NCBI GenBank assembly: GCA_965225085.1
Contig: CBDDBE010000004.1
Coordinates: 24,897-88,896, forward strand
Length of the DNA: 64,000 nt
From: an uncultured Candidatus Saccharibacteria bacterium
GTDB taxonomy: Bacteria; Patescibacteriota; Saccharimonadia; Saccharimonadales; EFPC-124
Reading direction: 5' to 3'
Of this stretch, positions 18,162 to 64,000 are shown piece by piece. Every line of letters starts with the position of its first letter. The stretch's first letter is position 1. The translations under genes were made by a program, and so were the position numbers. The notes beneath the pieces are model-generated. The model saw only the letters and a list, made by a program, of their open reading frames with translations, ran no database searches and was not told the DNA's origin.

Positions 18162-18686
18162 TTAGGCCGTAGCCTTTGCCTCGATTCCATCCAGTAATGC
18201 GTGAAGGTTGCCTGAAAGGCCGTTCATCACGTCGTTTACTGGTGAAGCCAGGGTTGCAATGACCTGAGCGATCAGGTCATTCTTGCTTGGAAGCGTAGCT
18301 AATGCCTGTACCGCGGTCTCGTCAAGCAGTTTGCCTTCCGCGGAAATCGCACCCGTTAGCTTGAGGGCTTCGTGGGTTTTGGCAAATGTAGCCAAAACCT
18401 GAGCGGGCGAAACTTCATCTTCGGCGCTTGCGGCGTAGAGCAATTGACCCGTAAGGGCGCTTGCGTCAACGTCTTTAAGCGTTTCGGATTGCGAGAGGGC
18501 AACGCGAACGAGGCGGTTTTTGACAACCTTGATCGTCACACCAGCCTCGCGGGCAGCACGACGAAGTTCTTGGATATCGGCTACGCTCAATCCAGCGTAA
18601 CTGGCGAAAGCGGTCATCTTGGACTCGCCAAGAAGCTCGCTAAGTTCAGCCACAAGGGATTGTTTCTTGTCACGACTAATTGCCAT
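18162..18686 (-). CDS. rplJ: 50S ribosomal protein L10
   Basis: ATG at 18686 (MAISRDKK) with AGAGG 9 nt upstream. Typical L10 N-terminal domain. Directly upstream of rplL. Confidence 0.9.
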   Translation of the reverse strand: MAISRDKKQSLVAELSELLGESKMTAFASYAGLSVADIQELRRAAREAGVTIKVVKNRLVRVALSQSETLKDVDASALTGQLLYAASAEDEVSPAQVLATFAKTHEALKLTGAISAEGKLLDETAVQALATLPSKNDLIAQVIATLASPVNDVMNGLSGNLHALLDGIEAKATA

Positions 18687-18692
18687 GTTCAA

Positions 18693-18947
18693 AACCTCTA
18701 AATGTTACTTAGCAGGCGCGCTCATACATCATGTATGAAAAGCGCCTTGCGCTGTTAGTATTAATCGACCAGATTGTAAAATTGCGGTTTAACGAGCCTA
18801 AAGAAAAAGATCCTTGGTTCTCGCATTACCAACGACCTTTTTTCGGGAAGAAATACAGATATTTTTGTATGACTATCCTCGGTAGCAGATTAAGCGGTTT
18901 GGCCGCAGCTACTGTCTTCGGTAATGGTCATGATGTAGTTTATACAA
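18693..18947 (-). promoter_or_regulatory. candidate L10 (rplJ) leader with attenuator hairpin
   Basis: 255-nt untranslated gap upstream of rplJ. Minus-strand hairpin AGCGC-AAG-GCGCT followed by TTTTC (18736-18754), plus a longer GTAGCTGCGG...CCGC...GCTAC structure. Not checked against a covariance model. Confidence 0.3.
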
Positions 18948-37815: not shown

Positions 37816-39525
37816 GTGGATTGGCGGAAACGATTGTCCGGCCAAGGTGCTCGTCGCGCTGGCAGGTCAAAGTTCAGATGGACTCCATTCCGTGGCCGGC
37901 CTACGCAGGGGTTTCTACCGAGACAACCGGATCATTCTGCAACAGGAGTGATGCAACGGCTTACCCCTGAGGAGCTGGACTTTTTTGATCGCGGAGGCAT
38001 GGAGGTTCCGCGCCGCAAGAAGCGCGTGGTTAGCCGTACGTTCATCGCGATTCTTAGCCGCTGGCGATACTTGCTTTCGACGTCGGTAGCCCTGATGCTG
38101 GTGGCGTCTCTGTTTGGTGTTGGGCTGACCGCGGTGCGTGACGCTTCCAACAACACTACACGACCACCGACGCAAAGCGCTCCGACGCTCCTTGAGCTTA
38201 ATCGCTCGATCGAGCTAGGTCAGGCTTACATCGCGGCACTGTACAAGCCCCTCCCTGGTGGCGAGGCCGTACAGAGCGAAGCGTCTGGTGTTCCCCTCCG
38301 AGTGTACTTCCCAGGCCAGAGGGCTTGGGTGCTGCTGGGAGAGGACAGGCGCTGCGCCTCGCGCTGCGACACGACGACGAGCATCGACAACACGCACGAA
38401 AGCGCAACGAGTGACGATTATGTCGTTACGTTCAACGCGCCAAACGCGCCCGATGCCCTGAAGGTGCGCGTCCAGATCAACTGGACGTTCAGTAAGACGC
38501 AGTATCAGATTCTGCTCACGCCAGTCGGTGTCAAGTTGCCAGCCGAACTGTGGCTGGACACGACCAAGCTGGAGAGCTACGCGCCCGGGGCGAACCCGGT
38601 CACGAAGCACGTGTTCGAGGACGGCAACCTGTCACAGCTGAAAATGCTGCGATTCACCACCCGGCATGCCACCCAAGAGGCCTATCTGTACTGGAGCACG
38701 GTCGGGCATGACCCGGCCAGGGCTGCAGCGCTGAAGAAGTTCCTTGAGGCGGATGGCTACGTCGCTGGGTACGACCTGCGCGCGCCGCTGTTTGGCGCCA
38801 ACGCTAGTCTACCTGACGATCTGCCGGTCAACCCGAAGGCTTACGCAGACTGCGACCACATCGCCACCGGCGGTCCGGACTGGTACGCCTATCGGAGCCG
38901 GGTCTGCCTGTACGAGAGCATGTACCTCACGAGCGGCGACCGTGATCCGTTCTTGCAGGCGTACGATGCTCTGACGATCCTGGTGAAGTATAAGGATCCG
39001 AAGCATGCTCTGCCTGAGTGGAGCTGGTGGGTGCAGGGCGGAACGCCGGCGGATGTCTTCACACACTTGCGTGGCCAGTGGAACCGCACTGGCCAGGGCG
39101 TACCAAAGTGTACACCATTCAAGTGTGAAGAGCTCAGTAGCATCCGGACCTCGGCGTATGGCGCACTGGCTACGCAGTTGGGATATGGCTATCATGACCC
39201 CGGCGCGCAAGCATCTGCTGACGCCGCCGCCAAGGTTATCATCCAGACGCAGATTCCTGCGAATGGCGCCATCCCCATGGGGGACGGCACGACGTATATT
39301 CGGCCTGGGCAGGCTGGCGGGTTCATGACCGCCTGGACTTCCAGCCTTAGGTTCACACAACCCAGCACGCCGAAGTTCCCGCTGGGGGTGGCCTTGTGGC
39401 TGAAGGACGGCACACTCATGCCGCCCGAGTACCGGGGCGTCGTTGCTAGCAATAGCGAAACGTCCCTGGATGCCCTCGGCTTCCTGATGATGTATAGGTG
39501 TCAGAAGTATCATCAGGGGTGCTAG
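37816..39525 (+). CDS. hypothetical N-terminally membrane-anchored protein with large Cys-containing exterior domain
   Basis: GTG at 37816 with GGAGG (37806-10), or ATG at 37951 with AGGAG. One TM segment (LLSTSVALMLVASLFGVGLTAV). GC-rich with no recognisable domain. The C-terminal part may be alpha/alpha-toroid-like, but this is a guess. Confidence 0.55.
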   Translation: MDWRKRLSGQGARRAGRSKFRWTPFRGRPTQGFLPRQPDHSATGVMQRLTPEELDFFDRGGMEVPRRKKRVVSRTFIAILSRWRYLLSTSVALMLVASLFGVGLTAVRDASNNTTRPPTQSAPTLLELNRSIELGQAYIAALYKPLPGGEAVQSEASGVPLRVYFPGQRAWVLLGEDRRCASRCDTTTSIDNTHESATSDDYVVTFNAPNAPDALKVRVQINWTFSKTQYQILLTPVGVKLPAELWLDTTKLESYAPGANPVTKHVFEDGNLSQLKMLRFTTRHATQEAYLYWSTVGHDPARAAALKKFLEADGYVAGYDLRAPLFGANASLPDDLPVNPKAYADCDHIATGGPDWYAYRSRVCLYESMYLTSGDRDPFLQAYDALTILVKYKDPKHALPEWSWWVQGGTPADVFTHLRGQWNRTGQGVPKCTPFKCEELSSIRTSAYGALATQLGYGYHDPGAQASADAAAKVIIQTQIPANGAIPMGDGTTYIRPGQAGGFMTAWTSSLRFTQPSTPKFPLGVALWLKDGTLMPPEYRGVVASNSETSLDALGFLMMYRCQKYHQGC

Positions 39526-39673
39526 ATCAAGACAGCTGCACGCGGCGGCAGGCTATGGGAAACCTAGCGCCTGCCGCCCGTGTGGAAGATAGAAATTATT
39601 TGCTTAAATCATGAGTGGGTTGTATGATTTGTATGCTCAAGGTGTTTCTGATCTTCACGAGAGGAGGCCGCCT

Positions 39674-39913
39674 ATGGCAGAAGATGATTGGCGCCACCAC
39701 GCGGCGTGCCGTGGCGTGGACCCTGAGTTGTTCTTTCCCATAGGCAACACCGGTCCGTCGGCTCTCCAGATCGAGGATGCTAAGGCTGTATGTCGCCGGT
39801 GCGACGTCGTCGATCAGTGTCTCGAATGGGCCGTCGACAACGGAATACCTTATGGTGTGTGGGGCGGTATGAGCGAGGACGAACGCCGCGCGCTCAGAGG
39901 AAAGGCTGCCTAG
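39674..39913 (+). CDS. WhiB family transcriptional regulator (WhiB1/WblE-like)
   Basis: GAGGAGG RBS 6 nt upstream. Four Cys in the C-x27-C-x2-C-x5-C arrangement (AACRGVDPELFFP...VCRRCDVVDQC), a GVWGG turn and a basic tail. Strongly resembles mycobacterial WhiB1 from memory. Confidence 0.85.
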   Translation: MAEDDWRHHAACRGVDPELFFPIGNTGPSALQIEDAKAVCRRCDVVDQCLEWAVDNGIPYGVWGGMSEDERRALRGKAA

Positions 39914-39937
39914 CTTGACTGCCATGTACTGAGCTGA

Positions 39938-39981
39938 GCCTTTCCGGTTGCCGCATATCTTGCGGCCCGGAAGGGCTTTTT
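39938..39981 (+). terminator. rho-independent terminator
   Basis: Long hairpin spanning 39938-39976 (GCCTTTCCGG...CCGGAAGGGC) followed by TTTTT. Confidence 0.7.
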
Positions 39982-40103
39982 ACATAATGTGGCAAGCTAA
40001 GACTAGGTATGATAAGGGCCCCGTAGTCGATTTGGCTGCGGGGCCCAGAGTGGTTCATTCGAGGGTGTGTCCCAAATTTTGGACTGGATTTGCGTAGTAG
40101 TGC

Positions 40104-40397
40104 TCACCCGCCATGCTCCTTCTCGTAGCGCTCCTTCGCTGATTCCAGGAGTTGGCGCCAGCTTTTGACGTGAGCCCTTCGTCGAAGCAATGCTCGGCGC
40201 TCACGTTCGGTCATGCCACCCCACACGCCGTATTCCACCCGGTTGTCCAACGCGTCGGCCAAGCATTCCGTCCGCACGGGGCAGCCGTTACAGACAGTTT
40301 TGGCCCTGTTCTGTGCTGCGCCCTTCACGAACAGCTCGTCGGGGTCCTTGCCACGACATGCCGCCACGACGGTCCAGTCTTCAACCCATCCCATCAT
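40104..40397 (-). CDS. WhiB family transcriptional regulator (WhiB4/WblA-like)
   Basis: AACRGKDPDELFVKGAAQ...VCNGCPVRTEC...YGVWGGMTERERRALL. Carries the Cys4 pattern and GVWGG turn. The C-terminal KSWRQLLE resembles WhiB4 from memory. Confidence 0.85.
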   Translation of the reverse strand: MMGWVEDWTVVAACRGKDPDELFVKGAAQNRAKTVCNGCPVRTECLADALDNRVEYGVWGGMTERERRALLRRRAHVKSWRQLLESAKERYEKEHGG

Positions 40398-53082: not shown

Positions 53083-54746
53083 CTAGGCCAGTCCGTACAA
53101 AGCGAAGGAAGATCCCGTCACCATGTTTGAGCCATCCGTTGTCGCGATGACTAGCGACGTGATTGCGGCTGTGGACAGCCAGGTTCCGCCAACAAGCCGC
53201 AGATAGTATTGCGTACCGCCAAAGCCGTGGCCCATAGACGTGAGCCCCTTAAAGATGGCATCGTCGGTACGATACATTGTGAATTCTCCAACACCAAATG
53301 AGTTTGCCGTAGCTGTGGCCCCGGGAACAACATCCATCCAGATACGCGAGTCACTGGTGCTGCCCCCCCATTGGATGTGGTATTATTACCCAACACTTGT
53401 TGCCATACGTAGTGGCCGCTCGTGGCGTCGGCGTTGAATCGGATGCCAAAGTCTGATGTGGCTCCGTTTACATCGCTACGTGCGGTATAGAACCCGCGCA
53501 GAGCCTTGTAGCCAGATGGCACGCTGATTGTAATCCCGGAGGCGGAGCTGGAGAGGACCTGAGAGCCGATTAGTGTCATCGCGCCAGAACTCGGCGCTTG
53601 CCATGTTGCCGTTGTACTACTGGTTGCCGTCAGGACTTGCCCATTGGCGGGCGTCCCAGAAATAGCCACGCCTTGGATCTTGGCAACCGTAGGGTTTGGA
53701 TAAGTACTGCCAGCAAGATCTCCACCCGCCGCTCCGGTGGGCGCTCTGCTATTGGTGGTTGTCGGGTCATTAGCGGATAAGGCATTGCCTGCTCCTGAAC
53801 CGGCAGCCCCAACAACCGGCACTTGCCCAAACGCCGCCGCGTCAGTGGCAACAGTTCCGTTGGCAAGACCGGTAATCTTGTGCGTGTTCATCGTAACATT
53901 GCCTGCTGTTGCATTGGCATTGGCGATGGCGGAGAGGTCGGTTGTGCTAGCCAATGCTCCTACCTGCGCAGCAGTGTAGTCGCCGCTTTGTGCGGTGACT
54001 GCACCCGTGCGGGTGAAGACAGACGAGACGGGGGCGCTAGCCGGTGTCTGCCAATTGGCAGCTGTACCACTTGTGGCTGTTAGCACTTGCCCATTGGACG
54101 GAGCAGCGGCGCCGTTCACAACAACTGTTGTGGTGCTTGAGCTGAGCGCATTGGCGGTCGTTGCTGTTGACGCGGTAGTAGCGTTGGTGGCGCTCGCAAC
54201 AGCCGAAGTTATCTGAGAGCCCGAGATAGATTTGTTTGTCAGAGTTTGTATGTCGGTCGTACCGACAACTGCTCCGGCTGGCGTAGCTACGGTTGTCATG
54301 GCCGCAGTGCCATTACCGACAACTAGCCCGGAGAGCGTTCCGGTGCCGGTACCACCTTGTGAAACGGGAAGGGCGCTGGACAGATGGGTGGCAACAATCT
54401 GGGGCGATGTTGCACTACCAGCGAGGTCGCCCGATAGCTGTACGATACCCTTGCTGCTGGTGGTTGCATCGGGCGTGCCGGCGCTTACTGCATTGTCTAC
54501 GTAGGTTTTTGTTGTAGCATGGCTGCCCAATGTTGGCGCAGGCATGAGTGGCGAAGATTGGAAGGTTTTGGTGCCGGCAATAGCCTCCGCGCCGGTCGTG
54601 TGGACGACGTTTGCATCGTTTGCTTTTGTGGCAAGGCTACCGGATGATTTTAGAGTGCCGTCCGGGTTGTGCTCTACGCTTAAAAAATCATTGAGGACAT
54701 CACCCCACGTACCGTTGTCTTGACCGGGCGTCGGTAAGCGTGACAT
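53083..54746 (-). pseudogene. fibre-like protein, family copy 4, reading frame broken at a G7 tract (phase-variable gene, pseudogene or assembly error)
   Basis: Conserved N-module at 54746. Contains tail-fibre-like segments (KTFQSSPLMPAPTLGSHATTKTYVDNAV, GGDLAGSTYPNPTVAKIQG, repeated NGQVLTATSxTxAxWQxP). The frame switches at the C7/G7 run 53363-53369. The plausible C-terminus continues in the other frame to 53083. Confidence 0.7.
54648..54746 (-). repeat. conserved 33-aa N-terminal module, copy 4
   Basis: MSRLPTPGQDNGTWGDVLNDFLSVEHNPDGTLK, starting at the ATG at 54746. The listed TTG at 54749 is less likely. Confidence 0.85.
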
Positions 54747-54910
54747 CAATAGCCCTTTATATGCTCAATCATATTTATCTAAGTATACCAAAGCGTAAGC
54801 GCGAGAAACAATTTCCCAGATGCTCCATTCAAGGCACGGCGCCAACAATACCCAAAGTAGCGATCATCTAGTTCCGGCCCAATACCTTGAAGACCAACAG
54901 GAGATAGATA

Positions 54911-55372
54911 TTAGGCTAAGTCGAGCTGTTTGACTACGCTCTTTTCGCCATTAAAAAATGAATCTCCGGCTTGCAGCGCAATTCTCCAAGCGTCTACCAC
55001 TTTCTGCCGATCAAGTTTCATGGATTCAAACCATGCTGGAGCTGAGACTGGATTGGGGCTGGTGTATGAACCCCAAGTCGCTATTTCATACAGTATAGGT
55101 ATCGCATCCATGCCTGTTGTGGTTAACGTATATATTGTCTTGCGTTTATCGGCGTCATCTTGCGATTTTTGGATTATCCCCACCTTCTCTAGGTGAACTA
55201 GTCGCTCGGATAGAACGCTGGAACCAATTTTTTCATCCGAATCCATGAACTCCCCAAACGTTTTCTTGCCTAGGGCGGCCATGTCGCGATAAATTAGCAT
55301 AGACCATGTGTCGCCAAAGATCTCAACAGTGAAGTTTATGGGACAATGTGATCTAGTATCTGTTCGCTTCAT
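54911..55372 (-). CDS. HxlR family transcriptional regulator
   Basis: CPINFTVEIFGDTWSMLIYRDM...FGEF...IGSSVLSERLVHLEKVGII winged-helix signature, with an extra C-terminal domain. Confidence 0.85.
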   Translation of the reverse strand: MKRTDTRSHCPINFTVEIFGDTWSMLIYRDMAALGKKTFGEFMDSDEKIGSSVLSERLVHLEKVGIIQKSQDDADKRKTIYTLTTTGMDAIPILYEIATWGSYTSPNPVSAPAWFESMKLDRQKVVDAWRIALQAGDSFFNGEKSVVKQLDLA

Positions 55373-55461
55373 CAGGGCAGCATAGCAGGAATTACTTTTA
55401 TCATCAAATTAATCATGATAAGCTGGGCGTAACCATCAACCCAATAAAAAAGGAACTCTGC

Positions 55462-55950
55462 ATGCCAAAAATCGTAACTTTTCTTTGGCTGAACGACCAA
55501 GCGGACGAAGCGGTCGACTTGTACGTATCGCTGTTTGAAGATGCGAAAATAACAAACACGTCATATCTCACAGAATCAGTGGCGGAAATGGCCGGAAAGA
55601 AAGCCGGAGATGTATCGTCAGTAGACTTTGAAATAGCTGGTCAAAACTTTACGGCGCTCAATGGCGGCCCAATGTACAAGCTTACCGAGGCCGCCTCGAT
55701 ACTGGTAGGCTGCAAGACCCAAGAAGAGATCGACAAACTTTGGGACGCACTGTCCAAAGACGGCAACGTATTGTCTTGCGGATGGGTTACAGATAAATAT
55801 GGCGTAACCTGGCAGATTGTGCCGGACAACCTAGACGAAATGATGCGCGACCCAGATCAGGCTAAAGCCAATCGGGTGAGCGAGGCTATACTTAGCATGG
55901 AGGGCAAACTGGATAAAAGTGAGCTCGAAAAAGCCTATAAAGGCGAATAA
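55462..55950 (+). CDS. VOC/glyoxalase-superfamily protein (PhnB / 3-demethylubiquinone-9 3-methyltransferase-domain-like)
   Basis: ITFLWLNDQADEA..LYVSLF and GWVTDKYGVTWQIVP segments typical of this domain. Divergent from the HxlR gene. Confidence 0.7.
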   Translation: MPKIVTFLWLNDQADEAVDLYVSLFEDAKITNTSYLTESVAEMAGKKAGDVSSVDFEIAGQNFTALNGGPMYKLTEAASILVGCKTQEEIDKLWDALSKDGNVLSCGWVTDKYGVTWQIVPDNLDEMMRDPDQAKANRVSEAILSMEGKLDKSELEKAYKGE

Positions 55951-56055
55951 TAATTGCAACTGTTGCAGGAGTTCGTGGATGGTTACCGGGCTGTAGGTAA
56001 GCACTGGCGTTTGTAGGTCTAATAAATTGGTGGCTTTTATGTTATTGTATAATTA

Positions 56056-56760
56056 ATGACTCAGCAAATCTCTATCTCTTGCCCGGGGTATACCATTGCA
56101 GCCGATTGGCACGAGGGCAAAACAAATCAAAAAATCATTCTTACATTCGTAGGCTTTGGTTCTAGCAAAAAAAGTAACTATGACTTCATGGTAAAGCTTG
56201 TTGATATGACTGGCGTGAGCGCGCTTGTGGTAGACTTTTCAGGTCACGGCGAAAGCCCACTGAATGTTGACGAAACAATGCCCGCACAACATCTACTCGA
56301 AGCGACCAAAGCATACGATTGGATCAAGGCTAACTATCCAGAGAGTGCCGTTTACGTTATGGGCACGAGCTATGGCGGCTTTATGGCGGCCTATCTTACT
56401 CGTTTCCGCCAGGTAGAAAAGTTGATTCTACGGACTCCAGCCATCTATGAGCCAAGTTCCTTCTATACCGAGCATCGCTTGATCGACAAAATCCTCGTCC
56501 GTGAATATCGTAAAGATACTGAAGCGCTTAAAAACCATCCTATCTTTCTGCAGCCAGCTGTAAGAGAAATGTCAACGTACCTTGTTATTCACGGTGAAGA
56601 CGAGAGCATTCCTCGGGAAACGACTGATGTATACAAATCAGCATTCGATGCAAAGATCTACCTGGCCGAAGGGTTTGCTCATGCATTCCGCGACCCAGCA
56701 AACCCACAAGAGAACATAGCTGCCTATTACGATGCTCTAGCTGCGTGGTTAGGCCAGTAG
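56056..56760 (+). CDS. alpha/beta hydrolase
   Basis: GHGES oxyanion region, nucleophile elbow GTSYGG, and a C-terminal His (GFAHAF). Confidence 0.7.
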   Translation: MTQQISISCPGYTIAADWHEGKTNQKIILTFVGFGSSKKSNYDFMVKLVDMTGVSALVVDFSGHGESPLNVDETMPAQHLLEATKAYDWIKANYPESAVYVMGTSYGGFMAAYLTRFRQVEKLILRTPAIYEPSSFYTEHRLIDKILVREYRKDTEALKNHPIFLQPAVREMSTYLVIHGEDESIPRETTDVYKSAFDAKIYLAEGFAHAFRDPANPQENIAAYYDALAAWLGQ

Positions 56761-56855
56761 TCTTTAGCTTGATTTTATCGATAGAATACGTTACCTTAAT
56801 CAAGTTGTCTGCAACCTGATTCGCAACAACAAATCCAGTCGACGAAGGGTGATCC

Positions 56856-58055
56856 ATGAACCTGTCGTGGGGCCATTATGACGACCCCGATACGCTGCAA
56901 GGGCTGGCGCAGTATAAGGCTTCGGGCCTTACATTACGCACGCCGAGTGATATTCAGCAATTGAGGCCTTCCGGCATTCAAAGCGTCGCTTACGCCTGTA
57001 GCGCCTTGCTGGACAGTACCTACAAAGGGAACTATCCGCAAAGCACCAAAGACGTCGATGCACTCGCCGCGAGCATGGCGAAGGGAGACACTCTTCTGTT
57101 CATGTTGCTTGACGGCGAGGAAGCAGTCGCCATCGCTAGTCTCATCCGCCGATCTAACAGTATGCGGGGCGATCTCCAGTTTGTTGAGCTGAGCAAAGCC
57201 GCAAAGCTCCCGGGTGATAAAGCTGCCGCTGTTCGAGTACGACATCTGTCAAAGTATCGTCTCATATGGGCAGACAAGCATTTGCCCGATGCGAGCTTCC
57301 TTTACGGCTCTCCGCGAGCCGCAAAGGAAGGCCGAGACGGTGCGCCCGGCGGCAAGTCAGCTCAAAGCGTGTGGTGGGGCGGCCGTCAACATGGTGCTGT
57401 GTTGCCACTCGTGGCGACCAATGTAGGGTGGAACTTCCGTGTCGGGGGCATTGAGCCGTTGACGGGTTTTACTGCCCCGATGCAAGCTGGCGCATGGCTT
57501 AGGTCGGCTAGCGCTGAGCGGGTCTTCGTTCCAAGCCGCATGGTGGAGTACTCCCTGCGAACCCTTCTTACCGAGGGAACAAACGGAGCGCTTTCACCTA
57601 TGCTGGGTACCACATTGGATACTCGCGAGGATGAGCCTGTCTTTCGTGAGGCTCGTCCGGCATTGGCCGACATCGTCACCAAGTACTACGTGACGGACAG
57701 TGCAGTTCATCTGGCTACACGATCTGCTCGTGAGGTCAGTGATCAGCTTTCTGGCACAATCAGCCAGAAGGTGATCGTCGAGACTGACGTCGCGTCAACG
57801 CCCCATGGTGCACGCGTTATGCGCTGGCTGCTGGCAAACGGGTGGACATTCGTGGGATGGCAGCCATCCGAGGTCATCTTCGGCGGCATCTGTCCGATGT
57901 TTGCACGAGTGAACCCCGAATTGGCGCATGAGCTGATCGAGCCCGTGCATCACTCGCAGTACTTCGACAGCGGTGGCCTTCGCTGCACGAAGGAAGTGCT
58001 GGACGCTATGTACGAGGAGATGCGCAACAAGGCGTTCTCCGCCAACATCCGCTGA
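56856..58055 (+). CDS. hypothetical protein, possibly tandem GNAT-like fold
   Basis: GC-rich. Segments LLFMLLDGEEAVAIASLIRR and ARVMRWLLANGWTFVGW are acetyltransferase-fold-like by eye only. Lies 11 nt upstream of the next gene. Confidence 0.5.
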   Translation: MNLSWGHYDDPDTLQGLAQYKASGLTLRTPSDIQQLRPSGIQSVAYACSALLDSTYKGNYPQSTKDVDALAASMAKGDTLLFMLLDGEEAVAIASLIRRSNSMRGDLQFVELSKAAKLPGDKAAAVRVRHLSKYRLIWADKHLPDASFLYGSPRAAKEGRDGAPGGKSAQSVWWGGRQHGAVLPLVATNVGWNFRVGGIEPLTGFTAPMQAGAWLRSASAERVFVPSRMVEYSLRTLLTEGTNGALSPMLGTTLDTREDEPVFREARPALADIVTKYYVTDSAVHLATRSAREVSDQLSGTISQKVIVETDVASTPHGARVMRWLLANGWTFVGWQPSEVIFGGICPMFARVNPELAHELIEPVHHSQYFDSGGLRCTKEVLDAMYEEMRNKAFSANIR

Positions 58056-58066
58056 AGGAGCGTCAC

Positions 58067-59107
58067 ATGTCTCGCGTCGTTTTGCTCGAAAATCCGGTAC
58101 TTCAGTACCGCCCGAACAGCAGCGTGCCCGTGAATATCAAGGCAGTCGCTGATCGCATCGACAGCCACCTCGGGTGTGGAGCTGGCAGAACATACTTCGT
58201 ACCCTTCGCCGCAGTTCACGCCAACCTCGCTCTCGATAGGGGCATCTCGGGAATCGGTGACCTCTACGGAGGCATCGTCCGACACCCCGAACACGCAGAC
58301 AAGGCCATCCTGCACGCGCTGCCGTCGCGTGACGCACAGCGCCCGGGTTGGTACTCGGCCCGCTTCGCCCGGCACGTGGAGGCCGTCGCCCTTCCGGGTT
58401 ACACTGCCTTCACGATCGAGGACGCGGTGCGGGCATATCGCTTGATGCGGAGTGATGATCTCACCGTTCGTCTCAAGGATCCGGCCAGCACGGGCGGCCT
58501 CGGTCAGCATTTCATTGGTACCGAGGCCGCACTGGTCGGTATTCTGGCGCAGTACGAAGCGAAACTGGCGAAAACCGGTATCGTTCTCGAAGCCGACCTT
58601 CATGGGCCGGTGACCATCACGATCGGCTACGTCAACATCGACGGAGCCATCTATACGTGGCACGGCCGACCGTATGACGTCAGTCACGACGGCATGATGC
58701 GGTTCGGTGGTAATGAGCTAACTGTCGTTCGTGGAGGTCTCGACGTATTGCATAGGTACGCCAAGGACCCCCACGACCGGCTCGCAGTCGATCAGGCAAA
58801 GCGCATTTTCGATGCGTACAGCCTGCTCGGGACGACCATTTCGCGCGCCACCCTGGACGTCGTTCAGGGAATGTCGTGCAATGGGGCGTTTCTGTCGGGT
58901 GTCACCGATCCGTCCCTACGGCCCAGCGCGTCGTCGGCGGCTGAAATCCGCGCCGTCGAAGCTCTCACGGACAACCCGGAGGCTACAGTGGCAAAGACCA
59001 GGCTCACCTACGACTACTGGAAGAGCATCAAGAGGCGCCCCGAACAGGAGCTGTTCGTGGATCATTCTCGTATGAGGATCCTGGTTGAGCTGGTGCACGT
59101 CGACTAG
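58067..59107 (+). CDS. hypothetical protein, ATP-grasp-like (possibly DUF3182 family)
   Basis: VRLKDPASTGGLGQ (Lys plus Gly-rich loop), IVLEADL, and a later LDVVQG...FLSGVTDPSLRPSAS arrangement are reminiscent of ATP-grasp ligases. Unverified. Confidence 0.45.
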   Translation: MSRVVLLENPVLQYRPNSSVPVNIKAVADRIDSHLGCGAGRTYFVPFAAVHANLALDRGISGIGDLYGGIVRHPEHADKAILHALPSRDAQRPGWYSARFARHVEAVALPGYTAFTIEDAVRAYRLMRSDDLTVRLKDPASTGGLGQHFIGTEAALVGILAQYEAKLAKTGIVLEADLHGPVTITIGYVNIDGAIYTWHGRPYDVSHDGMMRFGGNELTVVRGGLDVLHRYAKDPHDRLAVDQAKRIFDAYSLLGTTISRATLDVVQGMSCNGAFLSGVTDPSLRPSASSAAEIRAVEALTDNPEATVAKTRLTYDYWKSIKRRPEQELFVDHSRMRILVELVHVD

Positions 59108-59171
59108 CCTGCCACAATCCTAGGCATCACAAAATGCCTCACGCCGTTTGACGCCACAGCATTCACGGCCA

Positions 59172-59220
59172 CCCTCCGTCTCGCACCGCGCTACTAGCGC
59201 GTGCGGGGCGGAGGGATTTT
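59172..59220 (+). terminator. rho-independent terminator
   Basis: Hairpin of about 19 bp, CCCTCCGTCTCGCAC...GTGCGGGGCGGAGGG (59172-59215), followed by ATTTT. Confidence 0.6.
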
Positions 59221-59455
59221 ACTTCATGGCAGGAGTTCGCGGACAACTGCTGAACTTTAACGGTAGAAGTAGAGTGTGGTGCAAGCAGGTTCCGGAACTT
59301 CTGGATGGTGCTGAAAACGAGAACTTCGACACTGCACGGGCGGGTATCGGCTGAAACAAGCCTTATGCTAGAGGTAAGGTGATTAACGTTGGCTTTTGGC
59401 CGCATATAGCACGCGCCAATAACTACTAGCCGCCAAAATTTATATTCGACACCTC

Positions 59456-60487
59456 CTAGATAAGTGCTATTAAGGAATGGATATCCTCGCTCGTATTGTC
59501 CCATGAGACTACGAATCGCACTTCGCCAGGACTATTCCAGTCATAGAATACATGGCCAAATTTGCGAAGGTTTTGCGTTACCGCCTCAGGTAGGATACAA
59601 AATATTTGATTTGTCATGATAGGTTGCGTAAATGTTATGTCGGCATTTAGTTTTTTACGTAGATTTTCAGCTAACTGCTTAGTTAGTTGGTTGCTATATA
59701 GCGCGTGCTTAAGCCATAGCTCGTCTTTTAGATATGGGATAAATTGCCCTGCAGTATAGCGCATCTTTGACGGTAATTGCATTGCCTGTTTTTGCATACG
59801 TGATCTATCGCTCTGTGGTGCATTGAAGACTACGACTGCCTCTGCGTTCATAAGACCATTTTTAGCACCACCAAAAGATAAGACATCGACTCCAGCATCC
59901 TTTGTAATTGAGCGAAGCGAAGAGTTTATTGCTGCAGCTGCATTGGGTAAACGACAGCCATCCATATGTAGGTACATATCATTTGCATGACAGAAATCCG
60001 CTATCTTCCTAATTTCGCCTGGTGTGTAGTATGTCCCATACTCAGTAGTATTTGCGATAGATACTACTTTTGGAAGGGGTGAGTGAAAGCCCAACTCCTT
60101 ACGTAAAGCAACCTCAGCCTCAACATCTTGAAGCCGTACTTTGCCGTTCTCGTGGGGCACGGTGAAAATATGTGCTCCTAAATGCGCGGAAGAGGCACCC
60201 GTTTCTTCTTCAAAAACATGTGAAACCGAACTGCACACGATAGCATCATACGGATGCTCAAGTAGAAGCGAGAGCCCCAGGATATTTGCTCCCGTGCCAG
60301 TAGGTACGAATAGCACTTCAGATTCCCCGAACGTCTGCTGAAATAATTGTCGAGCCTCTTCAGTGACTGCATCAGCTCCATAACCTGGCATATGGCCCTG
60401 TGCATTTATATCCTGCAAGAACTGCAAAATAGCAGGATCTACACTCGAGAAATTATCACTTCCAAAAGTGCGAACTACGTTTTTCAT
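59456..60487 (-). CDS. threonine aldolase-like PLP enzyme (beta-eliminating lyase family)
   Basis: FGSDNFS N-terminus, PTGTGAN, HMDGCR, and the PLP-Lys region SFGGAKNG. Confidence 0.8.
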   Translation of the reverse strand: MKNVVRTFGSDNFSSVDPAILQFLQDINAQGHMPGYGADAVTEEARQLFQQTFGESEVLFVPTGTGANILGLSLLLEHPYDAIVCSSVSHVFEEETGASSAHLGAHIFTVPHENGKVRLQDVEAEVALRKELGFHSPLPKVVSIANTTEYGTYYTPGEIRKIADFCHANDMYLHMDGCRLPNAAAAINSSLRSITKDAGVDVLSFGGAKNGLMNAEAVVVFNAPQSDRSRMQKQAMQLPSKMRYTAGQFIPYLKDELWLKHALYSNQLTKQLAENLRKKLNADITFTQPIMTNQIFCILPEAVTQNLRKFGHVFYDWNSPGEVRFVVSWDNTSEDIHSLIALI

Positions 60488-61659
60488 GACTGACCCCCTA
60501 CCATAATTTCTTTGGCGGGCGGAAAAGCGTTATAGCCGGTCGCCCGTAGGGATGCTGCATACGCGCCGACGTCCTCAATAACAAGCAGATCTCCTATGTG
60601 CGCTTTTGGCAGTTGGCGTGGCTGTAAGATCTCGGCATTCCCAGGAGCAACAGTAAGAACATCTCCGGATTCACAGTTGTGGCCAACAACGATGTAATGA
60701 GCTTGCCCTTTATTGTCATTTAAAACTCGAATGTCATGCTGCGCACCGTATAATGTTGGCCGGAGAAAATCATTCATGCCAGTGTTAGTACGAAGAAACG
60801 TGTAGCCTTCTGGCCCCGTATCGACAATATCAACAATTTCAGCAAGCAGTGTTCCGGCGTGCGCTACAAGCCATGTCCCAGGCTCGATTTCCAGATGCAG
60901 TTTACGACCTGTTTGTTTGTAGAAATGTTCGAGCCGCTCGGCAAACATGGACATGATATTGGACATATCAGCTTCTTGCTCACCTTCGGCGCGTCGTACT
61001 TTGTATCCACCGCCCATATCTAAGGTCGTTACGGTAGGCATTTGTAAAGCAATGGCAAGAGATGCATCGATGGCATCTTTCCAAGACTTAGAATCAGCGC
61101 CTGATCCGATGTGCGTATGTAGCCTGTCAACAATAACACCTGCAGCGTCTGCCATTGTCAGGGCTTGCTCAAGGTATTCATACCAGATGCCGAAGCTCGC
61201 CGACACACCCGCAGTTGTTGTGCGGTTGTTGTGTCCTGAACCCACGCCGGTGTTGATTCGTAGCGCAACGCGAGCTCCTGGGCTAGCCGCGTCAATAAAA
61301 AGTTGCAGCTGGTGCAAGGAAGTAGCAACAAATTGTACGTTTGCAGCTAACAAATCGGAAAGATTGTGCGCTGGCTGCTGAGAAGAGAGACTTATTTTTT
61401 CGCCGCTGATGCCAAGATCAAGTAGCATCTCTGCCTCATAACTTGAACTGGCGTCAAAATGTAGGCCTTCGGTATTAAAAAGGCGAATTATATCTGGGTG
61501 TGGGTTCGCTTTGACTGCGTAGCGTGTCGTTAACCCAAACGGCAGGGCGAGGCTCTTCAATTGCCGAGCCCGTGCCCTTAATTCGTTAGTGCCGTATATA
61601 TAGAGTGGAGTGCCATGTGCCTGTGCTAGTGATTTTGCCTGTGTCGATGATATATTCAT
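60484..61659 (-). CDS. lysA: diaminopimelate decarboxylase-like (fold-type III PLP decarboxylase)
   Basis: YAVKAN PLP-Lys motif, HIGSG, DMGGGY and CESGD motifs. The stop overlaps the downstream ATG (ATGA). Confidence 0.75.
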   Translation of the reverse strand: MNISSTQAKSLAQAHGTPLYIYGTNELRARARQLKSLALPFGLTTRYAVKANPHPDIIRLFNTEGLHFDASSSYEAEMLLDLGISGEKISLSSQQPAHNLSDLLAANVQFVATSLHQLQLFIDAASPGARVALRINTGVGSGHNNRTTTAGVSASFGIWYEYLEQALTMADAAGVIVDRLHTHIGSGADSKSWKDAIDASLAIALQMPTVTTLDMGGGYKVRRAEGEQEADMSNIMSMFAERLEHFYKQTGRKLHLEIEPGTWLVAHAGTLLAEIVDIVDTGPEGYTFLRTNTGMNDFLRPTLYGAQHDIRVLNDNKGQAHYIVVGHNCESGDVLTVAPGNAEILQPRQLPKAHIGDLLVIEDVGAYAASLRATGYNAFPPAKEIMVGGQS

Positions 61660-61749
61660 AATTCATCTAGCATACATCCTGTGGGCCGTAGTGTTAAATA
61701 TTTGGATATATTGATATAAATTGTATATTTTGCTATATTTATAACAATT

Positions 61750-62391
61750 ATGATAACAGTCGCACAACTAGTTCAAGATGCTCTTCTGCATGATGACGTT
61801 GCCCTAGCCGCAGCAAAGGAGGGCTGGTTAAATCTATCATCATACGCGAGGACACTACAGCCCGACATTCAGGAACGGCTATTCAAGGAGGTTCAGGAAG
61901 GAACGATAATAACTGCCCTATCCCGCATTGTCTCAGATCTGGAAGATAGCAAAAGACCAGCACGCAATGTTATCCAGAGCCTTTCAGTCCACTCCAACCT
62001 TGAAGGTATGACATTTGAGCGGACTGATGAGGTGTCGGAAAGAATTCGAAGCATCTACTCTACAATACACATGACCAATAAGTCCTATCTTACTATTACG
62101 CAGGGTATCAATGAGGTGACGATTATTGCTGAATCGCAAGTAGCACAGTCATTCCGGGATGACCTTAGAGATACCCAAAAGGTTTATGATAAAACGAACC
62201 TTGTTGGAATTACTGCGAAGTTTAAAATAGGCTACCTGGAAATCCCCAACCTTATTTTTTCTTTAACGCAACGTTTGGCGCACAGAGACATAAATATTAT
62301 TGAAATTGTATCCACTGCAACTGAGCTCACCTTCATCATAGAGAAGAAGGATCTCTCTACCACACTGTCTCAACTTCAGAAGGATATATGA
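61750..62391 (+). CDS. hypothetical protein with C-terminal ACT-like domain
   Basis: The C-terminal LVGITAKF....IPNLIFSLTQRLAHRDINIIEIVSTATELTFII segment resembles aspartokinase-type ACT domains. AT-richer gene. Confidence 0.5.
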   Translation: MITVAQLVQDALLHDDVALAAAKEGWLNLSSYARTLQPDIQERLFKEVQEGTIITALSRIVSDLEDSKRPARNVIQSLSVHSNLEGMTFERTDEVSERIRSIYSTIHMTNKSYLTITQGINEVTIIAESQVAQSFRDDLRDTQKVYDKTNLVGITAKFKIGYLEIPNLIFSLTQRLAHRDINIIEIVSTATELTFIIEKKDLSTTLSQLQKDI

Positions 62392-62493
62392 TTTATGAGA
62401 GCGCAAGGGTTTGCGAACAAGACAAGTGCCCCAAAATTTGAGGCATTTCGTATCTGAGCTAGACTTCGATCCTGCCGATCCTAATACAGTCCA

Positions 62494-63195
62494 TCAAGAT
62501 GTACGCAATGACGGGCGTAACTGTCGAAGCTGTAGCAGCCAGTATACCCCGATGCAGATTCCCCATAACGGGAGAGCAAAGCCAGCGACACGTTCCCACC
62601 CTCCGTATCCAAGCCCAGCATACGGTGGCATACCATCCATAAAGGACCCAATCATACCGATGACGCCCCACGCTAGGGTGAACCAGCCAAGCCTGGGTCG
62701 TATTTTTAGGGCAGCAAAGCCGAGCAGAATAAGGCCCATATTTAGGGAAAAGATTGCAAGCCCACCCGAAAGGCTATGGAGGAATGGATTAAGATTGAGC
62801 GGCGAAAAACCCGCGACAACTTCCTCTATACCCCCGAAGAAAAGAAGCCCTAACCCCGTTTTGCGCAATTTTTTACCCGGCCAGAGAGGTCGAAGGACTA
62901 GTATTACCGCAAGCATGATCAGCGCCCCGCTAAGGACAAACGTCGTATCCATTACTGCGTGGAGTGGCGAGCAAACATAGAACCACTGATTCGTCTGTGG
63001 CTCCTTAAAATTGCCGCAGGCTGTTATGCCGAGCGAGCTTATAGATTGCCTTTTGGCACTATACGGCGCCGTAACGCTCAATTGACTGACGGCTTGTCCC
63101 ACAAAGAAAACTACGAGCAAAAGCATACAAATCAAACCCCGCGTAAACCATCTGCGCTGTGCGGGGTCGGCTGCAATATATCCAGGCAATTGCAT
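62494..63195 (-). CDS. membrane protein (DUF998-like)
   Basis: Six or seven hydrophobic segments. Protein-like, in contrast to the overlapping 189-aa plus-strand ORF. Divergent from a TetR gene. Confidence 0.55.
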   Translation of the reverse strand: MQLPGYIAADPAQRRWFTRGLICMLLLVVFFVGQAVSQLSVTAPYSAKRQSISSLGITACGNFKEPQTNQWFYVCSPLHAVMDTTFVLSGALIMLAVILVLRPLWPGKKLRKTGLGLLFFGGIEEVVAGFSPLNLNPFLHSLSGGLAIFSLNMGLILLGFAALKIRPRLGWFTLAWGVIGMIGSFMDGMPPYAGLGYGGWERVAGFALPLWGICIGVYWLLQLRQLRPSLRTS

Positions 63196-63250
63196 CAGAA
63201 ATCTCCTTATACTATACTGATTAGTACGATCGTACTAATCATAACGCAGA

Positions 63251-63880
63251 ATGAAGCGACTAACAACTCAAATCCGCACAACCTATACTCCACGAAACGT
63301 TATTACCGTCACGCAGCGAGAAATTATGCAATGTGCCATGGAAATGATGGCGGAAGTGGGTTACGCACAAACCACTATTGGCTCAGTAAGCAAGCGGCTC
63401 GGTATAAGTAAGGGCGTCATACAATACCATTTTCCGAGTAAGGAGGAGCTCATTCAGGAAACCATCGCTTATATATACGCGACAGCGCGAGACTACATGT
63501 CGTCTCAGATTTGGAATACAACCGACGAATGGAAGCAAATTTGCAGCTTTATACAAGTGAGTTGCCAGTTTTATCAACAGTATCCTATGCATATAAAAGC
63601 ATTGCAGGCAATACGGACAAACTTCCAGCCGACCAGGCATACAAGCCTTGCGCAAACTCTCTACGAACAGGAGCTGGCTGACCTTACGGGTATTTTTACG
63701 TCAGGCCAAACGAAGGGAATATTCCGCACTTTCGATCCAGATGTTATGGCACTAACGCTCCGACTGGCCCTTAATGGAGTCGTGACATGCATATACGGCC
63801 AACCAAACTACGACGTACAAAAGCATGCCGATGAGCTTGTCGCATTATTTGAGCTAGCATTATTAGGGCGTACGGCCTAA
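63251..63880 (+). CDS. TetR/AcrR family transcriptional regulator
   Basis: N-terminal HTH (REIMQCAMEMMAEVGYAQTTIGSVSKRLGISKGVIQYHFPSKEEL). Confidence 0.85.
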   Translation: MKRLTTQIRTTYTPRNVITVTQREIMQCAMEMMAEVGYAQTTIGSVSKRLGISKGVIQYHFPSKEELIQETIAYIYATARDYMSSQIWNTTDEWKQICSFIQVSCQFYQQYPMHIKALQAIRTNFQPTRHTSLAQTLYEQELADLTGIFTSGQTKGIFRTFDPDVMALTLRLALNGVVTCIYGQPNYDVQKHADELVALFELALLGRTA

Positions 63881-64000
63881 CGTTTGGCTCGTCTGCACTC
63901 ATGTTTAAAATCAACAAATACACTTCATTTCACAGAGGTATTTTAAGTTTAATTCGTATCTTACCTTAACTCTGTAAAACGGCTTATGATGAAGAACGCC

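Follow-up and report, generated by a model that had tools for sequence, protein, structure and literature searches.

Two tightly spaced genes stand out as a GC-rich pair in an AT-rich neighbourhood of a Saccharibacteria genome; what might they make, and did they arrive there together from elsewhere? We addressed this question in a 64,000-nucleotide stretch of DNA from an uncultured Candidatus Saccharibacteria bacterium (contig CBDDBE010000004.1), referred to below as the window. A preliminary description, made from the letters alone, had delimited a cassette of two genes, here called g1 and g2, for a GNAT-like protein and an ATP-grasp-like protein, and had suggested that the cassette was laterally acquired. 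That interpretation holds in part, in that its guesses at the folds stand, whereas the limitation to two genes and the lateral acquisition do not. The two genes are the second and third members of a conserved trio that opens with an α/β-hydrolase gene. We propose, with a probability of about 0.5, that the trio is a conserved enzyme module of Saccharibacteria-like (Patescibacteria) bacteria for the synthesis and turnover of an amide-linked, N-acylated amino-acid or short peptide-like metabolite. The features of the locus are as follows:

56056-56760, + strand: α/β-hydrolase gene, 234 amino acids, the first gene of the trio; AT-rich, with a GC content of 0.468 and a GC content at third codon positions (GC3) of 0.472.
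56769-56797, + strand: weak promoter-like element, TTGATT-N17-TACCTT, in the 95-nucleotide AT-rich spacer between the hydrolase gene and g1.
56856-58055, + strand: g1, 399 amino acids, ATG start; unclassified family with a predicted GNAT-like fold.
58056-58066, + strand: spacer of 11 nucleotides between g1 and g2, with an AGGAG ribosome-binding site 6 nucleotides ahead of the g2 start.
58067-59107, + strand: g2, 346 amino acids, ATG start; ATP-grasp enzyme of the DUF3182 family.
59172-59220, + strand: GC-rich hairpin of 20 pairs and one bulge, followed by a U-tract; probable intrinsic terminator of the operon.

The order α/β-hydrolase, g1, DUF3182 is found in the window and at five related loci (L001, genome CAIJKY01; L003, genome Ga0500614_000001; L006; L007; and L008), and the flanks of the trio are unrelated at each of them. 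Relative to the window copies, the hydrolase, g1 and g2 are respectively 80, 84 and 85% identical at L001, 69, 58 and 67% at L008, 65, 58 and 70% at L003, 55, 54 and 61% at L007, and 53, 51 and 57% at L006. These congruent identities imply that the three genes were inherited together. The pairing of g1 with g2 therefore recurs at all five loci, but the upstream AT-rich hydrolase gene is conserved and co-diverges with both of them, which makes the unit one of three genes and not of two. For 13 pairs of a g1 and a DUF3182 homologue the longest contigs recorded are equal in length, suggesting that the two genes lie on a common contig. A scan of genome contigs with the single g1 sequence returned one locus; an alignment as the query would have reached further. 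The related loci sit on single contigs of 1.07-1.27 Mb, and the only relatives of g1 and g2 with a named source are from Candidatus Saccharimonadales and one Chloroflexota metagenome-assembled genome (MAG). Ribosomal protein L10 of the window shares 57% identity with the L10 of a Saccharimonadales MAG, and a Saccharibacteria-like origin is likely. The retention of an ATP-consuming trio in Saccharibacteria-like genomes of ~1.1-1.3 Mb suggests that it is likely to matter to the organism.

The hydrolase matches Hydrolase_4 in Pfam with E = 2.6e-9 and 37.2 bits (cutoff 27), and also matches Abhydrolase_1. Its catalytic triad consists of Ser105 in a GTSYGG nucleophile elbow, Asp182 and His209, and is invariant in nine sequences, proteobacterial ones included. 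g2 belongs to the DUF3182 family (PF11379), as had been guessed, with E = 4.3e-58 and 197.4 bits (cutoff 26); its residues 40-326 align to positions 45-334 of the 354 in the model. Both motifs quoted for this protein in the preliminary description, VRLKDPASTGGLGQ and IVLEADL, can be read in g2. The AlphaFold2 model of g2, built on a 30-sequence alignment, has a mean predicted local distance difference test score (pLDDT) of 93.2. In a Foldseek search it yields 359 matches in the PDB at E <= 1e-3, of which the leaders are all ATP-grasp enzymes, among them biotin carboxylase, the peptide ligase PGM1 (3wvq/3wvr), PurK, PurD and Ddl. The ATP-grasp character claimed for the second protein is thus supported by its predicted three-domain fold. 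This result agrees with an independent study that assigns DUF3182 to the ATP-grasp fold, in the vicinity of carbamoyl-phosphate synthases, biotin carboxylase and BtrJ (Burroughs et al. 2015, PMC4431377).

Eight residues of g2 are invariant across Saccharibacteria-type and proteobacterial members: R135, K137, G146, Q147, E175, D264, S283 and R285. Read from the alignment, and not from a structural superposition, the putative ATP-grasp features are the strand lysine K137, a Gly-rich loop GGLGQ, E175, the Mg-binding residue D264, and a D/E-x-S-x-R sequence at the position of the ExN motif. InterPro describes DUF3182 as restricted to Proteobacteria. g2 falls into a distinct clade that is ~35% identical to the proteobacterial proteins, and its own N-terminus is shorter than theirs. 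At the ExN position g2 reads TDPSLR and the Proteobacteria LEQSWR, with Asp in place of Glu, and the Ser that replaces the canonical Asn is found throughout the DUF3182 family. One gene-cluster predictor gives DUF3182 a weight as associated with biosynthetic clusters.

g1 belongs to a rare family. Searches of Pfam and NCBIfam (both at E <= 1), PADLOC and PHROG returned no match for it, and neither a single-sequence nor a profile search against PDB chains gave anything meaningful, the best matches being a PsbP protein and M11L at E ~0.1 or worse. A set of 5.8 billion clustered proteins contains 31 homologues of g1, and a search of 1.84 billion proteins at E <= 1e-3 gives 39 representatives. No Pfam domain was detected in any of the ten distant representatives scanned, and no precomputed one is given for the g1 homologues listed. 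The preliminary description had nevertheless read an acetyltransferase fold into g1, and structure prediction supports this. The AlphaFold2 model (pLDDT 84.4, predicted template modelling score 0.86) has 115 Foldseek matches in the PDB at E <= 1e-3, and virtually all of the best 50 are GNATs. The best match is 1ghe; target-normalised template modelling scores across the matches reach 0.63. Against BFVD the model gives 31 matches at E <= 1e-3, mostly GNATs among the matches listed. The order of secondary structure elements in residues 26-208 fits the GNAT core (β1-α1-α2-β2-β3-β4-α3-β5-α4-β6), but a loop replaces α4.

The idea that g1 is a tandem of two acetyltransferase folds finds no such support. 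Two GNAT domains in one chain are the hallmark of FemX/FemA, MshD, NMT and Eis. Between the two halves of g1 no similarity was detected (hhalign probability 0.4%) and the fold matches are single-domain GNATs; in the search with the whole, unsplit model the Foldseek alignments cover single domains of ~130-200 columns. g1 shares a predicted core fold with GNATs such as the tabtoxin resistance protein (1ghe), AAC(3)-Ia (1bo4) and the Eis-like 3n7z, but differs from them in its length of ~400 amino acids with a second α/β domain, in the lack of a sequence match to any GNAT model, and in a conserved loop, YGSPRAA...GG...QSVWWGG, where α4 is expected; nor is a Q/RxxGxG/A motif clear. The residues invariant across the family are R154, P201, D311, L325 and G334. 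The C-terminal domain reads TPHGAR, in which G318 is kept only among close relatives. By its predicted structure, g1 is a member of a GNAT-fold family absent from Pfam, with atypical features at the cofactor site.

The distribution of the three genes suggests how the trio was assembled. At L011 and L015, on contigs of 1.07 and 1.2 Mb, the hydrolase gene is followed directly by the DUF3182 gene, without g1. In Sphingomonas and Dyella a DUF3182 gene is followed by a homologous hydrolase gene, so that the gene order is opposite to that in the g2 clade. A homologous hydrolase gene is adjacent and on the same strand in 44 of 80 metagenome DUF3182 loci, and adjacent in 27 of the 33 that have at least 900 nucleotides on each side; none of the 80 loci contains a relative of g1. 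The ancestral unit is DUF3182 plus hydrolase, and g1 was inserted between the two later, in one Saccharibacteria-type lineage. The near-constant partner of DUF3182 across phyla is thus one orthologous α/β-hydrolase, which offers a first concrete two-enzyme unit for biochemistry.

Relatives of g1 that are not accompanied by DUF3182 (L004/L005 and L012) lie directly upstream of one to three genes for M20 deacylases of the ArgE/DapE type. At L004 (8001-12834, a Candidatus Saccharimonadales MAG) the g1 homologue precedes three tandem M20 genes and the cluster adjoins thymidylate-metabolism genes and rplJ/rplL. The M20 proteins score under all equivalog cutoffs. The arrangement resembles known acylation/deacylation pairs of a GNAT and an ArgE/DapE enzyme, except that the hydrolytic partner in the window is a serine α/β-hydrolase and not a metallo-deacylase. 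This association is a second pointer to the chemistry of N-acyl amino acids or amides. The most distant g1 members stand alone in actinomycete-like contexts. Two of these family members, at 21-24% identity (L013 1522-3496 and L014 7001-8200), lie near MbtH, SARP/BTAD regulators and DUF397/HTH_31 pairs, which hints at a link to secondary metabolism. As a separate observation, the DUF3182 homologue P0114 (372 amino acids, on a 7905-bp contig) has PF13814 as a further precomputed Pfam match and aligns with g2 along no more than 50% of its length; a fusion or a frameshift may lie behind this. The longest contig reported for the g1 homologue P0018 is likewise 7905 bp, and the two may share a contig.

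How the locus is transcribed can be read in part from its spacers. The preliminary description placed the two open reading frames (ORFs) at exactly the coordinates listed above, with an 11-nucleotide gap, and this tight spacing suggests that g1 and g2 are co-transcribed and translationally coupled. The long GC terminator that it had noted behind g2 is borne out as well. The hairpin at 59172-59215, followed by AUUUU, has a folding energy of -44 kcal/mol and z = -5.8, with none of 200 shuffled sequences as stable, and its U-tract is present on the + strand only. A simple consensus terminator scan did not call it, probably because of the one-base bulge. The position is conserved in relatives, with strong hairpins and T-runs 35-75 nucleotides past the g2 homologue in L001, L003, L007 and L008. 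g1 and g2 probably form one transcription unit that ends at this hairpin. In the spacer between the hydrolase gene and g1, the pattern TTGAnn-N17-TAnnnT can be read at an equal position in the aligned sequences of the window, L001 and L008, and in L003 the spacer is lengthened by an 8-nucleotide insertion. The element at 56769-56797 may act as a promoter, to judge from its letters; a consensus promoter scan made no call for it. The spacer has no excess RNA stability (z = -0.03), and Rfam detects no structured RNA or leader in it.

What, then, might the three enzymes do together? In the proposed route, the ATP-grasp enzyme g2 would convert a carboxylate to an acyl-phosphate and join it to an amine, giving an amide or peptide-like bond. 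The GNAT-fold protein g1 would acylate or aminoacylate an amino group of that substrate, or of the product, either as a cap or to supply an N-acylated building block. The hydrolase would cleave an ester or amide in the product, or in one of its precursors, and so serve release, turnover or self-protection. The chemistry, the substrates, the donor used by g1 and the order of the steps are what we infer from the predicted folds, the catalytic residues, the linkage of the genes and their co-divergence. GNAT and ATP-grasp routes to N-acetylated dipeptides are a parallel, and so is butirosin biosynthesis with its logic of ligation, transfer and deprotection. Other pairs of an ATP-grasp enzyme and a GNAT are MdnB/C with MdnD in microviridin formation, and Ngg in the synthesis of N-acetylglutaminylglutamine amide (NAGGN). 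As in the amidoligase pairs of the R2K.3 linkage (PMC4431377), the ligase gene is here tightly coupled to a gene for a GNAT-fold protein, and this coupling suggests amide formation followed by N-acyl capping. In contrast to R2K, RimK and MdnB/C-like systems, the ligase belongs to DUF3182 and the GNAT-fold partner to a new family. The trio also departs from known ATP-grasp and GNAT pairs in that it is the α/β-hydrolase, and not the GNAT, that accompanies the ligase consistently across phyla, and in that it contains no precursor peptide gene. The module can be seen as a variation on the pairs of ATP-grasp ligase and GNAT-fold protein already known, and its DUF3182-hydrolase core was not found described in the literature on DUF3182/PF11379. 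Our search of that literature found no functional study, and searches on ATP-grasp enzymes in Saccharibacteria and on NAGGN found nothing usable.

Several observations weigh against the proposed synthesis and turnover of an N-acylated metabolite. No GNAT model of Pfam is significant on any of 20 members of the g1 family; at E <= 10 the same 20 gave one match only, to Acetyltransf_6 with E = 0.12, and nothing recurrent. In the alignments, the N-terminal domain of g1 shows no recognisable Q/RxxGxG/A motif past β4, where the loop of residues 118-127 reads AKLPGDKAAA. The conserved loop at the expected position of α4 (residues 155-172) is rich in Gly and Pro and of low confidence in the model. With no motif to be recognised and a loop in place of α4, g1 could, on this reading of the sequence, use a donor other than acyl-CoA or have a non-catalytic role. 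In g2, the change of ExN to DxS (D281-x-S283, with E-x-S in Proteobacteria and the Ser invariant) is unusual for an ATP-grasp enzyme. The literature search turned up no characterised member of the g1 family or of DUF3182. Finally, ~90-115 nucleotides and the promoter-like element part the hydrolase gene from g1, which leaves co-transcription of all three genes no more than possible. A bolder version of the proposal, which we advance tentatively, turns the lack of a recognisable acyl-CoA motif to account: g1 would found a GNAT-fold family that lacks the canonical acyl-CoA site and uses another donor, and the trio would make an amide-linked metabolite specific to Saccharibacteria. The donor would then be the acyl-phosphate or aminoacyl product of the DUF3182 partner, or an aminoacyl-tRNA. 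If so, the metabolite possibly serves the episymbiotic life on Actinobacteria.

Other functions can be read into the same three genes. The trio might modify proteins or peptides, possibly in conflict or defence: the ATP-grasp enzyme would tag a target in the manner of RimK, tubulin or graspetide ligases, acylation of the target would fall to the GNAT-fold protein, and reversal or processing of the modification to the hydrolase. Such ligation of peptides to proteins with GNAT capping has been proposed for other GNAT-linked ATP-grasp families (Burroughs et al., PMC4431377), but DUF3182 lies outside the R2K clade for which a conflict role has been proposed. PGM1, a peptide ligase, is among the structural neighbours of g2, and the trio adjoins a type I restriction-modification system at L007 and an OLD-family nuclease with AlbA_2 at L003; these defence neighbours are, however, inconsistent across the loci. 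PADLOC at E <= 0.01 returns no match for the hydrolase, g1 or g2, and save for a generic esterase match the three proteins have no counterpart in PADLOC or PHROG. In addition, the trio holds no conserved small ORF or precursor peptide, its spacers of 95 and 11 nucleotides being followed by the terminator. We therefore regard protein modification as unlikely. The precursor-peptide arrangement of graspetides and other ribosomally synthesized and post-translationally modified peptides was rejected on the same ground, as the trio has no room for a conserved small ORF. Slightly less likely still is a role in detoxification or resistance, in which g1 would N-acylate a toxic amino-acid analogue or an aminoglycoside-like compound while the hydrolase and the ligase process related compounds. 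Saccharibacteria are described as living on Actinobacteria that produce antibiotics, the fold matches of g1 are led by resistance GNATs acting on toxins that resemble amino acids or on antibiotics (1ghe, AAC(3)-Ia, glyphosate N-acetyltransferase and ArsN), and g1 homologues are paired with deacylases of the ArgE/DapE type. A Foldseek rank among GNATs at 7-18% identity says nothing on the substrate, however, the canonical acyl-CoA motif is not evident in g1, and an ATP-dependent ligase is unexpected in a simple resistance determinant. The tailoring of the cell envelope appears improbable. Here an ATP-grasp enzyme like D-aspartate ligase and a Fem-like aminoacyl transferase independent of acyl-CoA would load peptidoglycan or lipid precursors. 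Fem, MprF and L/F-transferase are GNAT-fold proteins without the acyl-CoA motif, which g1 likewise lacks, and the weak match of one g1-family member is to the FemAB-like Acetyltransf_6. That lone match (E = 0.12) is not significant, though, and the structures of Fem, MprF and L/F-transferase are absent from the best 50 of the 115 fold matches. Cell-wall genes are not found near the trio at any locus, and the proteobacterial pairs have no consistent context, with amidase and penicillin-binding protein genes several kb upstream in Sphingomonas and none in Dyella.

A further alternative concerns the origin of the genes, namely a recent lateral gain of the GC-rich g1-g2 cassette from a GC-richer donor into an AT-rich native neighbourhood. 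The contrast in GC content that had prompted this idea is real, g1 and g2 standing at 0.578 and 0.608 (GC3 0.635 and 0.720), compared with 0.457 in the left flank (54.9-56.9 kb) and 0.467 in the right flank (59.1-64 kb). The 2252-nucleotide cassette as a whole, at 0.592, belongs to the top 1.4% of windows of equal length, and its step to 0.46-0.47 is sharp on both sides. The GC content of the whole window is 0.537, that of its first 54.9 kb 0.544. Among 65 non-overlapping ORFs of the window (mean GC3 0.597, standard deviation 0.077), however, g1 and g2 have z values of +0.5 and +1.6 and the hydrolase gene one of -1.6. g2 is nominally the highest of the 65, with four other genes at ~0.71, and GC3 is 0.38-0.53 in the flanking genes (54.9-56.8 kb and 59.4-64 kb). 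g1 and g2 look compositionally native to the window and the flanks are the outliers. The contrast is due mainly to an unusually AT-rich neighbourhood, over at least 9 kb and up to the end of the window, and not to an unusually GC-rich cassette. The apparent island is a genome-typical gene pair within an AT-rich stretch, so the inference of an island ran the wrong way.

The related loci point in the same direction. The GC3 step is found in L001, L003 and L008, with values of 0.45-0.47 in the hydrolase gene, 0.62-0.64 in g1 and 0.69-0.80 in g2; at the end of the hydrolase gene the profile stays flat in L006 and L011, and L007 has a mild step. Four-fold degenerate sites, compared with the window, are saturated in L003 and L008 (0.29-0.42 identical) and not yet saturated in L001. 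Saturated sites and an identical step in orthologous trios imply that the step is old and shared and does not mark a recent insertion. Its left boundary, moreover, separates g1 from the conserved hydrolase gene with which it co-diverges. A lateral gain could draw on the high GC content (0.72-0.74) of the proteobacterial genes that are the closest DUF3182 relatives outside Saccharibacteria, and on the actinomycete-like contexts of the distant g1 relatives, but the proteobacterial homologues are just ~35% identical. The context of the trio differs from genome to genome, often in variable regions and sometimes near restriction-modification or OLD-nuclease genes, which suggests that the whole trio, and not g1-g2 specifically, resides in such regions. 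We consider the lateral gain of the pair a poor explanation, and the suggestion of lateral acquisition is not sustained: a GC step inside a co-inherited trio, common to L001, L003 and L008, and genes typical of the ORFs in the window speak against it. If g1 uses a donor other than acyl-CoA, as in the bolder proposal above, the conserved GC3 step in the operon would reflect selection on expression rather than history.

Some minor observations concern the neighbours of the trio and the remainder of the window. Downstream of the trio, L003 (10853-14042) encodes AlbA_2 and an OLD-family nuclease, L007 (10490-17194) a type I restriction-modification system with RhuM, and L008 (9186-11782) two further ATP-grasp ligases with DUF6119. 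An antisense ORF overlies g2 (57950-58687, - strand, 245 amino acids), and its counterpart at L001 (9101-10240, - strand, 379 amino acids) spans all of g2; we set these ORFs aside, as they are probably a by-product expected from high GC3. Should the window contain an acquired island at all, the AT-rich block at 54900-64000 is the candidate. Apart from g1 and g2 this block has a GC content of ~0.46, and it contains genes for HxlR, a 3-dmu-9_3-mt-like protein, a membrane protein and TetR, as well as a gene for a pyridoxal phosphate-dependent enzyme resembling β-eliminating lyase or threonine aldolase that overlaps an ornithine/diaminopimelate/arginine decarboxylase gene by 4 nucleotides. Where the block starts (~54.9 kb) lies the end of a gene at 53151-54749 (- strand) for a tail-fibre-like protein of 532 amino acids, rich in Ala, Thr, Gly and Ser, with a BppL_N lower-baseplate N-terminal domain and a DUF5907 repeat, and without a match in PHROG. 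The window has just one further GC peak, at 38121-40372 (0.60 over 2252 nucleotides), where an ORF at 37816-39525 (+ strand, 569 amino acids) has a GC3 of 0.718. No tRNA genes are found anywhere in the 64-kb window, and its sole Rfam match is a ribosomal protein L10 leader at 18794-18939 (- strand, 59 bits), upstream of rplJ at 18162-18692 (- strand).

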